A stretch of 64,000 bases of DNA. Source: Octopus vulgaris (lineage: Eukaryota). The DNA lies in the NCBI GenBank assembly GCA_951406725.2, contig OX597814.1, positions 15,686,001-15,750,000 of the forward strand, read 5' to 3'. The translations under genes and the position numbers were made by a program. The notes under the pieces were generated by a model. It saw nothing but the letters and a program-made list of their open reading frames with translations. It was not told where the DNA came from and made no database searches. Below are positions 51,881 to 52,138 of the stretch, one piece after another. How positions within the stretch are numbered: the first letter of the stretch is position 1; each line of letters opens with the position of its first letter.

Positions 51881-52138
51881 TAATAGTTATCGCCATACTA
51901 ATATGGCATTCTTATAAAAATAAGAAAAAAGCTGTCCGCTTATTAGCTCCATGAGGCCATCGCCTTAAGTTAGCTATTTGATACACAAACTGTATCCATA
52001 TAACCTTCGAACAAGGGAGGTCAGCTTTTTTCTTATTTTTATAAGAATGCCATATTAGTATGGCGATAACTATTATTTTCCGAGAACGCTGCCGCTGTTC
52101 TCTTTTAGAGAGACTTAGTTATTTTAATATTTCTATTA
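51881..52138. mobile_element. Fold-back element in (TA)n (54-bp perfect arms plus unpaired tail), Penelope-like architecture
   Basis: 51881-51934 is the reverse complement of 52022-52075. Confidence 0.55.

Follow-up and report, generated by a model that had tools for sequence, protein, structure and literature searches.

A covarying two-helix RNA element near the type I hammerhead of an octopus retrozyme superfamily, a putative docking surface for a Penelope-type reverse transcriptase

Two fold-back insertions and the repeats from which they derive

The stretch analyzed here (the window) comprises 64,000 nucleotides of the Octopus vulgaris genome (assembly GCA_951406725.2, contig OX597814.1, forward-strand positions 15,686,001 to 15,750,000), and it carries two short fold-backs in which a sequence-only reading had noticed a shared two-hairpin motif. 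Both motif strings are present as that reading wrote them, at 51944-51996 (A) and 37171-37219 (B), and each sits in a fold-back loop, with arms at 51880-51934/52022-52076 and 37116-37142/37245-37271, respectively. Each is an inverted, 5'-truncated insertion of one of two related repeat families, both abundant and non-coding, with units of ~355 nt. The family A1 insertion (51880..52139) consists of two 5'-truncated arms, head to head, inside (TA)n. Arm 1 (51880..52024, minus strand), identical (100%) to the A1 consensus, spans unit positions 31-175 as counted from the predicted hammerhead cut, has the "short" 3' end, and contains the motif; arm 2 (52019..52139, plus strand) spans unit positions 118-238 and has the "long" 3' end, with a tail of ~62 nt. 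The two arms overlap by 6 nt at the junction. The family B insertion (37065..37274), from a subfamily shorter by 3 nt, likewise has two truncated arms head to head: arm 1 (37065..37228, minus strand; unit positions 49-215; 94.6% identical to the B1 consensus) contains the motif and has the long 3' end, and arm 2 (37224..37274, plus strand; unit positions 117-167) stops a few bases short of the usual short 3' end, with an overlap of 5 nt. Both are of the minimal form, two short arms each truncated ahead of the hammerhead, which is lost from either insertion, and the motif comes to lie inside a fold-back loop only because the arms are truncated unequally.

Read on the minus strand, the A motif comprises helix H2 (51980..51996), a 6-bp hairpin with a 5-nt G-N-N-N-G loop, and helix H3 (51944..51976), in which a 5-bp outer stem, a conserved 4x3 internal loop (ANCU / UGG), and a 6-bp inner stem lead to a 4-nt loop. 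In B, H2 (37203..37219, minus strand) is again a 6-bp hairpin with a 5-nt loop, and includes one G·U pair; the "one mismatch" noted earlier holds on the strand then read and becomes this G·U pair on the hammerhead strand, which is the window minus strand. The outer stem and internal loop of H3 in B (37171..37200, minus strand) are intact, and its inner stem is shorter, a subfamily trait, and weakened by a copy-specific substitution. The inner stem that had been drawn at 37171 does not survive, its register resting on a substitution present in 2 of 60 B-cluster copies; the window copy belongs to a subfamily with an inner stem 3 nt shorter, and in the majority of B copies the inner stem has 6 bp and a 4-nt loop and is the homolog of the one in A. 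Alone, the window B copy folds no better than shuffles (z -0.84 on the minus strand, -0.32 on the plus), whereas a typical B copy beats them (z -3.39). The base swaps that separate A from B in the outer stem and in the hairpin are nonetheless true family differences and not copy noise.

A first look at the 2.8-Gb genome gave 1565 candidates for family A and 1844 for family B, 40 of which were scored in each. Longer A copies are head-to-tail arrays of a 362-nt unit without a long ORF, and a dimer of it has stops in all three sense frames; in all six clusters having tandem copies (A, B, D, E, F, H), adjacent units are 350-364 nt apart, inside the ~150-400 nt by which retrozymes are recognized. 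Two further hallmarks, a lack of coding capacity and a type I hammerhead in each unit, are found as well: no PLE ORF is contiguous with any of 258 copies, and hammerhead core and stems are visible in 8 of 8 unit consensuses, with the predicted cut site 57-61 nt upstream of H2. The core is canonical in family B, and Rfam Hammerhead_1 matches 3 of 3 B2 units (32.2 bits, E 7.5e-6, slightly below the gathering score of 34). Family A, with its hammerhead on the strand opposite to that of the earlier text, has a U3-A8 core variant, and its unit has no Rfam match for the hammerhead. The motif is very probably, then, RNA structure of a retrozyme. The suggestion that it belongs to the pLTR of an autonomous element is not supported, given that longer copies are ~355-nt tandem units devoid of an ORF and that none of the 258 copies, in 175 loci, adjoins or runs into an RT/GIY-YIG ORF.

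The insertions carry Penelope-type footprints: tandem arrays, one inversion, and two fixed 3' ends. A single strand switch, at a variable junction, is seen in each of the 28 distinct A loci, a count that the fold-back query favors; where both ends are in view, 24 of 26 loci combine a short end with a long one, one lying near unit position 300 and the other at 362. Two clusters of 3' ends recur in A1, B1, B2, D, F, and H, with a tail on one end only; measured from H2, they lie at ~+111-122 and +158-180 in all lineages, such that the motif is at a fixed distance from both copy ends. As in PLE insertions, an inverted 5'-truncated copy adjoins the main copy. A Kolobok/MITE reading was rejected, fixed terminal inverted repeats around a fixed interior being absent; arm lengths and junctions vary from one insertion to the next, and each arm is a segment of a tandem unit. 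The earlier proposal of a conserved RNA structure within hammerhead-bearing, Penelope-type fold-backs is borne out. On the other hand, the impression that the surrounding arms share no sequence proved mistaken, since families A and B are colinear homologs. Their consensuses, whose alignment had been named as a test, align all along from hammerhead to 3' end with a score of 145, against 74.7±7.7 for shuffles (maximum 100.5 of 500); without the hammerhead, the score is 108.5 against 66.5±7.4 (maximum 91.5).

Several further observations concern these repeats and their surroundings. All A units (for example, L011:1838-1880, plus strand) have a second hammerhead-like core at the unit start; a homologous hairpin in B, D, F, and H keeps the stem and the subsequent GAAA-like run and has lost the core, and the region is possibly the relic of a second ribozyme. 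The A unit is found near-identical in sequencing runs under seven organism labels, and four runs presumed to be RNA contain it only as assembled contigs, which show neither strand, ends, nor level; two pattern scans of metagenome contigs did not return the motif. Elsewhere in the window, fold-backs of unrelated families lie at 8949-9150, 21488-21648, 54122-54316, and 54350-54489, none of which matches the motif model described below, and hammerhead-like cores of other repeat families occur at 33276 (+), 56634 (-), and 52323 (+), with no motif nearby.

Base pairing kept across five lineages

Genome-wide, a pattern for the 6-bp hairpin finds 6381+6280 places, many counted on both strands, versus 314+337 for the reversed control, an excess of about twentyfold. 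The copies fall into five lineages (A, B, D/E, F, and H) with 12 subfamily consensuses, the most distant lineages being 48-68% identical between subfamily consensuses. Families A and B (A1, B1) were chosen without any pattern; D, F, and H were found by patterns that fix H2 and were filtered on part of H3 and on H5, so that conservation there is inflated. Of 288 motif matches, we used the 258 that fall in six clusters, the rest being antisense or junction matches, one local tandem, and singletons; cluster G, with two copies, was excluded from the 12-consensus covariation tally. When a model made from 27 copies was applied to 40 additional loci from lineages H, D, and F, it recognized the motif in every one, and over the whole window it has no other match above 17 bits. 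Two arrangements of lineage H stand apart. The local tandem (L109, G000:C21:19237409-19240436) repeats a 77-nt piece, little beyond the rod strand (see below), H2, and H3, at least five times, and L113-L118 (G000:C29) hold one fold-back, in six copies of a duplicated gene segment, that adjoins an exon-like open frame.

Across these five distant lineages, the two hairpins keep their base pairing. In the 27 natural copies, 95.3% of 451 cells are paired, as compared to 32-54% in slid controls, and 9 of 17 pairs have changed on both sides; RNAalifold recovers 16 of the 17. Because the copies are related, we also simulated evolution along the subfamily tree, treating each column as independent and giving it as many changes as were observed. 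The 12 consensuses have 197 of 203 cells paired, against 168.4±7.8 in these simulations (0/5000), and 7 pairs occur in at least two Watson-Crick types, against 2.2±1.2 (5/5000); the covariation first proposed from two copies is thereby confirmed. With H2 fixed by the search patterns and part of H3 by the filter, the inner stem of H3, which was in no search pattern, was retested alone: 62 of 71 cells are Watson-Crick, versus 42.1±5.5 simulated (0/10000) or, under a strong transition bias, 44.0±5.4 (2/10000), a frequency that becomes 110/10000 if G·U is counted as paired. All these comparisons are favored by the structure having been drawn from the very sequences tested.

The earlier reading had left the strand unknown. 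The hammerhead-bearing strand is the window minus strand, and folding energy alone is not decisive, the A motif folding equally well on the plus strand (z -3.62, vs -2.38 on the minus) and the antisense circle of lineage F being equally stable. On the hammerhead strand, the cells that are not Watson-Crick comprise 9 G·U, 4 A·C, and 2 other, and this excess of G·U over A·C is a modest strand signal that agrees with the ribozyme strand.

By sequence identity, H2/H3 is the best-conserved stretch of the repeat unit: A1 and B1 agree at 37 of 53 positions in the motif (70%), 22 of 33 in the hammerhead core (67%), and 116 of 283 elsewhere (41%). The A-N-C-U/UGG internal loop is kept in 12 of 12 subfamily consensuses while the bases of the stems swap, as expected of a recognition site. 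The H2 loop begins with G in all 12, its middle three bases varying freely. Consistent with the initial view that the motif fits no known RNA family, Rfam models gave no match over it at E<=10 in two units, save generic long-hairpin models spanning the fold-backs, and nothing over it at gathering score in six loci; over the B fold-back, the window scan gave just a generic microRNA-hairpin match, among the best 150 of 196 matches listed. The families considered were hammerhead, HDV-like, twister, twister sister, pistol, hatchet, hairpin, SECIS, SRP, and Y RNA. We conclude that H2/H3 is a real, undescribed structural domain inside a known kind of element.

Predicted monomer fold and the coding Penelope-like elements

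When folded as circles, 8 of 8 unit consensuses keep these helices, at 0.97-0.99 for H2, 0.72-0.97 for the outer stem of H3, and 0.63-1.0 for its inner stem, and the circles are more stable than shuffles (12 each), on average by 14-40 kcal/mol. The strand directly before H2 is predicted to pair with a strand upstream of the hammerhead, giving a long-range "rod" that extends stem I, and H2 and H3 would be the first two arms of a multibranch head that the rod closes. In the A copy, the 5' strand of the rod corresponds to 52002..52018 (minus strand), its partner being missing from the truncated insertion. A further predicted helix, P8 (~+58-66 with +123-135), encloses hairpins H4 and H5 and an open stretch; its 5' strand and the two hairpins map to 51892..51935 (minus strand). 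The short copy ends fall inside this open stretch, and the long ones after H6. Like H2 and H3, the predicted rod, P8, H4, and H5 keep pairing across lineages. Individual old copies often fold otherwise, as expected after neutral decay. Two structures considered early on, a local helix "P0" that would close a three-way junction with H2 and H3 and a hairpin "H1", were dropped, full-monomer folds giving their strands to the rod and P8.

The genome also holds young coding PLEs of two families, one Neptune-like (ORFs of 781 aa) and one Hydra-like (ORFs of 717 aa), clade names that rest on motifs and the available text of Craig et al. (2021, PMC8557442) rather than on a tree. The autonomous elements sampled are Neptune-like and one Hydra-like family only. 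Among them, the motif model found no motif in cis, neither in 30 GIY-YIG loci and 20 longer ones, where three strong matches are separate retrozyme insertions, nor in 25 Hydra-like loci, if the A copy of the window itself is set aside. Conversely, no motif copy continues into an RT plus GIY-YIG ORF, five of the 175 loci having separate Hydra-like fragments nearby. Neptune-like copies end ~65-100 nt past their hammerhead and transpose without the motif, and hence their enzyme does not need it for its own RNA. That these coding elements lack the motif speaks against an inherited signal, and a role in docking, if there is one, would be peculiar to the parasite. A by-eye likeness of Neptune-like 3' ends to retrozymes was discarded as not significant, the 3' ends of Neptune-like and Hydra-like elements having no significant similarity to retrozymes (lowest p 0.033 of 24 tests). 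A B-type match 1.3 kb past a Neptune-like ORF (L240) was set aside too, since it lies beyond the element end and an intervening SINE-like stretch.

Two of these coding elements have features of their own. In a young Neptune-like element (L233:268-1704 and 1626-3968; also L230, L232, and L234), a 479-aa frame that starts ~130 nt past the hammerhead lies upstream of, and overlaps, the 781-aa RT/endonuclease frame, and the long 3' region contains repeated promoter-like words. In the window, a very young Hydra-like PLE has inserted as a fold-back at 52777-54121 and includes a GIY-YIG fragment (P0001); of its 21381 candidates, 150 were scored, and nearly all of these are 99% identical. The hammerhead of this element, apparently a variant, seems to have a branched stem II, and its tail is ~70 nt.

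Candidate roles and known systems

The link between retrozymes and PLEs is already published, and the 2020 and 2026 retrozyme papers, in their available text, propose PLEs as partners, leaving mechanism and signal undefined (Cervera and de la Pena 2020, PMC7229834; Li, Clavereau and Pollet 2026, 10.64898/2026.07.22.740005). Following PMC7229834, tandem transcripts would self-cleave and the monomers circularize; following PMC11167929, a PLE enzyme, putatively bound by H2/H3, would then nick AT-rich DNA and start reverse transcription at two internal sites, which would yield one long arm and one short arm. On balance, we think it somewhat probable that this covarying two-helix element, near the type I hammerhead in a retrozyme superfamily, is a docking surface recruiting the Penelope-type RT/endonuclease of another element to the predicted RNA circle. 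The element is conserved like a catalytic core, its loop letters are fixed, and so is its distance to the start sites, all of which argues that it most likely binds a protein. That the protein is a borrowed reverse transcriptase, with H2/H3 as its docking site, is the first-ranked reading of function, and one that we hold tentatively, by analogy with a lizard PLE in which, as far as the source text goes, a protein-binding determinant lies just 3' of the hammerhead and two internal RT starts define the tail (PMC11167929), matching the two copy ends here.

A host factor needed by the non-coding circle and not by a coding PLE, be it for RNA ligation, export, stability, or as a chaperone that silences the hammerhead, ranks next and is in our estimate rather unlikely. 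It would account for a motif kept by all non-coding lineages and absent from the sampled autonomous elements, and circularization of animal retrozymes has been attributed to a host ligase, with an unidentified block on the hammerhead in circles inferred as well, in the available text of PMC7229834. The same text, however, describes the retrozymes of other animals as species-specific in sequence, which leaves no known shared host-factor site, and the motif has no Rfam match. It is likewise unlikely, and placed after the host factor, that H2/H3 is purely architectural, a compact fold that positions the two RT starts and protects the circle with no partner reading the helices. The whole monomer does fold far better than shuffles, with the pairing of rod, P8, H4, and H5 also kept, but at an overall identity of 50-60%, the unpaired bases of the loops and several letters of the stems never vary, which shape alone does not need, and the sequence identity of the motif equals or exceeds that of the catalytic core.

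We regard as very improbable that the conserved letters are a DNA-level internal promoter box driving transcription of the arrays. Non-coding arrays need a promoter, and the 5' strand of H3, as it reads in lineages B, D, and H, bears what we take to be a resemblance to a tRNA-type A box. Both strands of each helix change together, however, the box-like letters are not kept in lineage A, and the lineages have no B-box-like word in common. Last in the ranking, and the most doubtful, is a second, undescribed self-cleaving or ligating ribozyme. A pistol-like topology was considered and rejected, the H2 loop having no pseudoknot partner and the motif no Rfam match; the letters of that loop vary freely, with no covarying partner in the consensuses. 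That no Rfam family explains the motif does favor a new ribozyme, as does the invariant internal loop between two covarying stems, an arrangement shared with the minimal twister-sister-like "lantern" ribozymes (PMC11620745, in the text available). In those, however, the loop is of 5+6 nt with a conserved CA cut site, as opposed to 4+3 nt with other letters (ANCU/UGG in 12 of 12 consensuses) here, and the unit already has a hammerhead, such that a second cut would split the monomer.

Returning to the borrowed reverse transcriptase, one may go further and suppose that parasitic circles carry an enzyme-recruiting domain that coding elements lack, in which H2/H3 would bind and activate the telomerase-related Penelope RT in trans and the P8-closed loop would present the start site. 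We offer this as a speculation more likely wrong than right by some distance. Its two-part design is one that we would presumptively liken to telomerase RNA, with a binding domain plus a template pocket. If true, it would explain how retrozymes hijack their partner. Recognition of a retrozyme by RT becomes directly testable with a 53-nt element conserved like the ribozyme core, five lineages that supply natural compensatory variants, and copy ends that have been mapped.

The domain is not described in the available text of the retrozyme and PLE papers considered here, though supplements and the Repbase/Dfam libraries could hold these families, and the main text of a 2026 octopus repeat annotation does not mention hammerheads or retrozymes (PMC13282606). 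In their available text, the papers on metazoan non-LTR retrozymes (PMC7229834; 10.64898/2026.07.22.740005) describe elements much like those here, with short tandem units (350-390 bp in mussel vs 350-364 here), one type I hammerhead per unit, no ORF, low GC, a highly self-paired predicted monomer, and PLEs in the same genome. They present minimum-energy folds of single families, whose sequences are called species-specific, and describe neither a covarying domain common to distant families nor inverted two-ended insertions; circular RNA has been demonstrated there and is predicted here.

Endonuclease-bearing PLEs, as far as they are treated in the text available (Craig et al. 2021, PMC8557442; Cervera and de la Pena 2014, PMC4209133), differ in that RT and GIY-YIG ORFs are absent here, the tail is ~45-63 nt rather than 30-40, and the motif is not in the sampled coding elements. 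Common to both are a hammerhead with palindromic helix III, the U3-A8 core variant, partial tandems, an inverted 5'-truncated copy, a one-ended tail, and a (TA)n bias. The template RNA of the lizard Poseidon element PAc, likened here by its description in the accessible text and not by sequence or structure, has a coding region at the corresponding place and a binding motif that is unmapped; it shares with the octopus retrozymes a functional region just 3' of the hammerhead, two internal RT starts, and AT-rich targets (Frangieh et al. 2024, PMC11167929).
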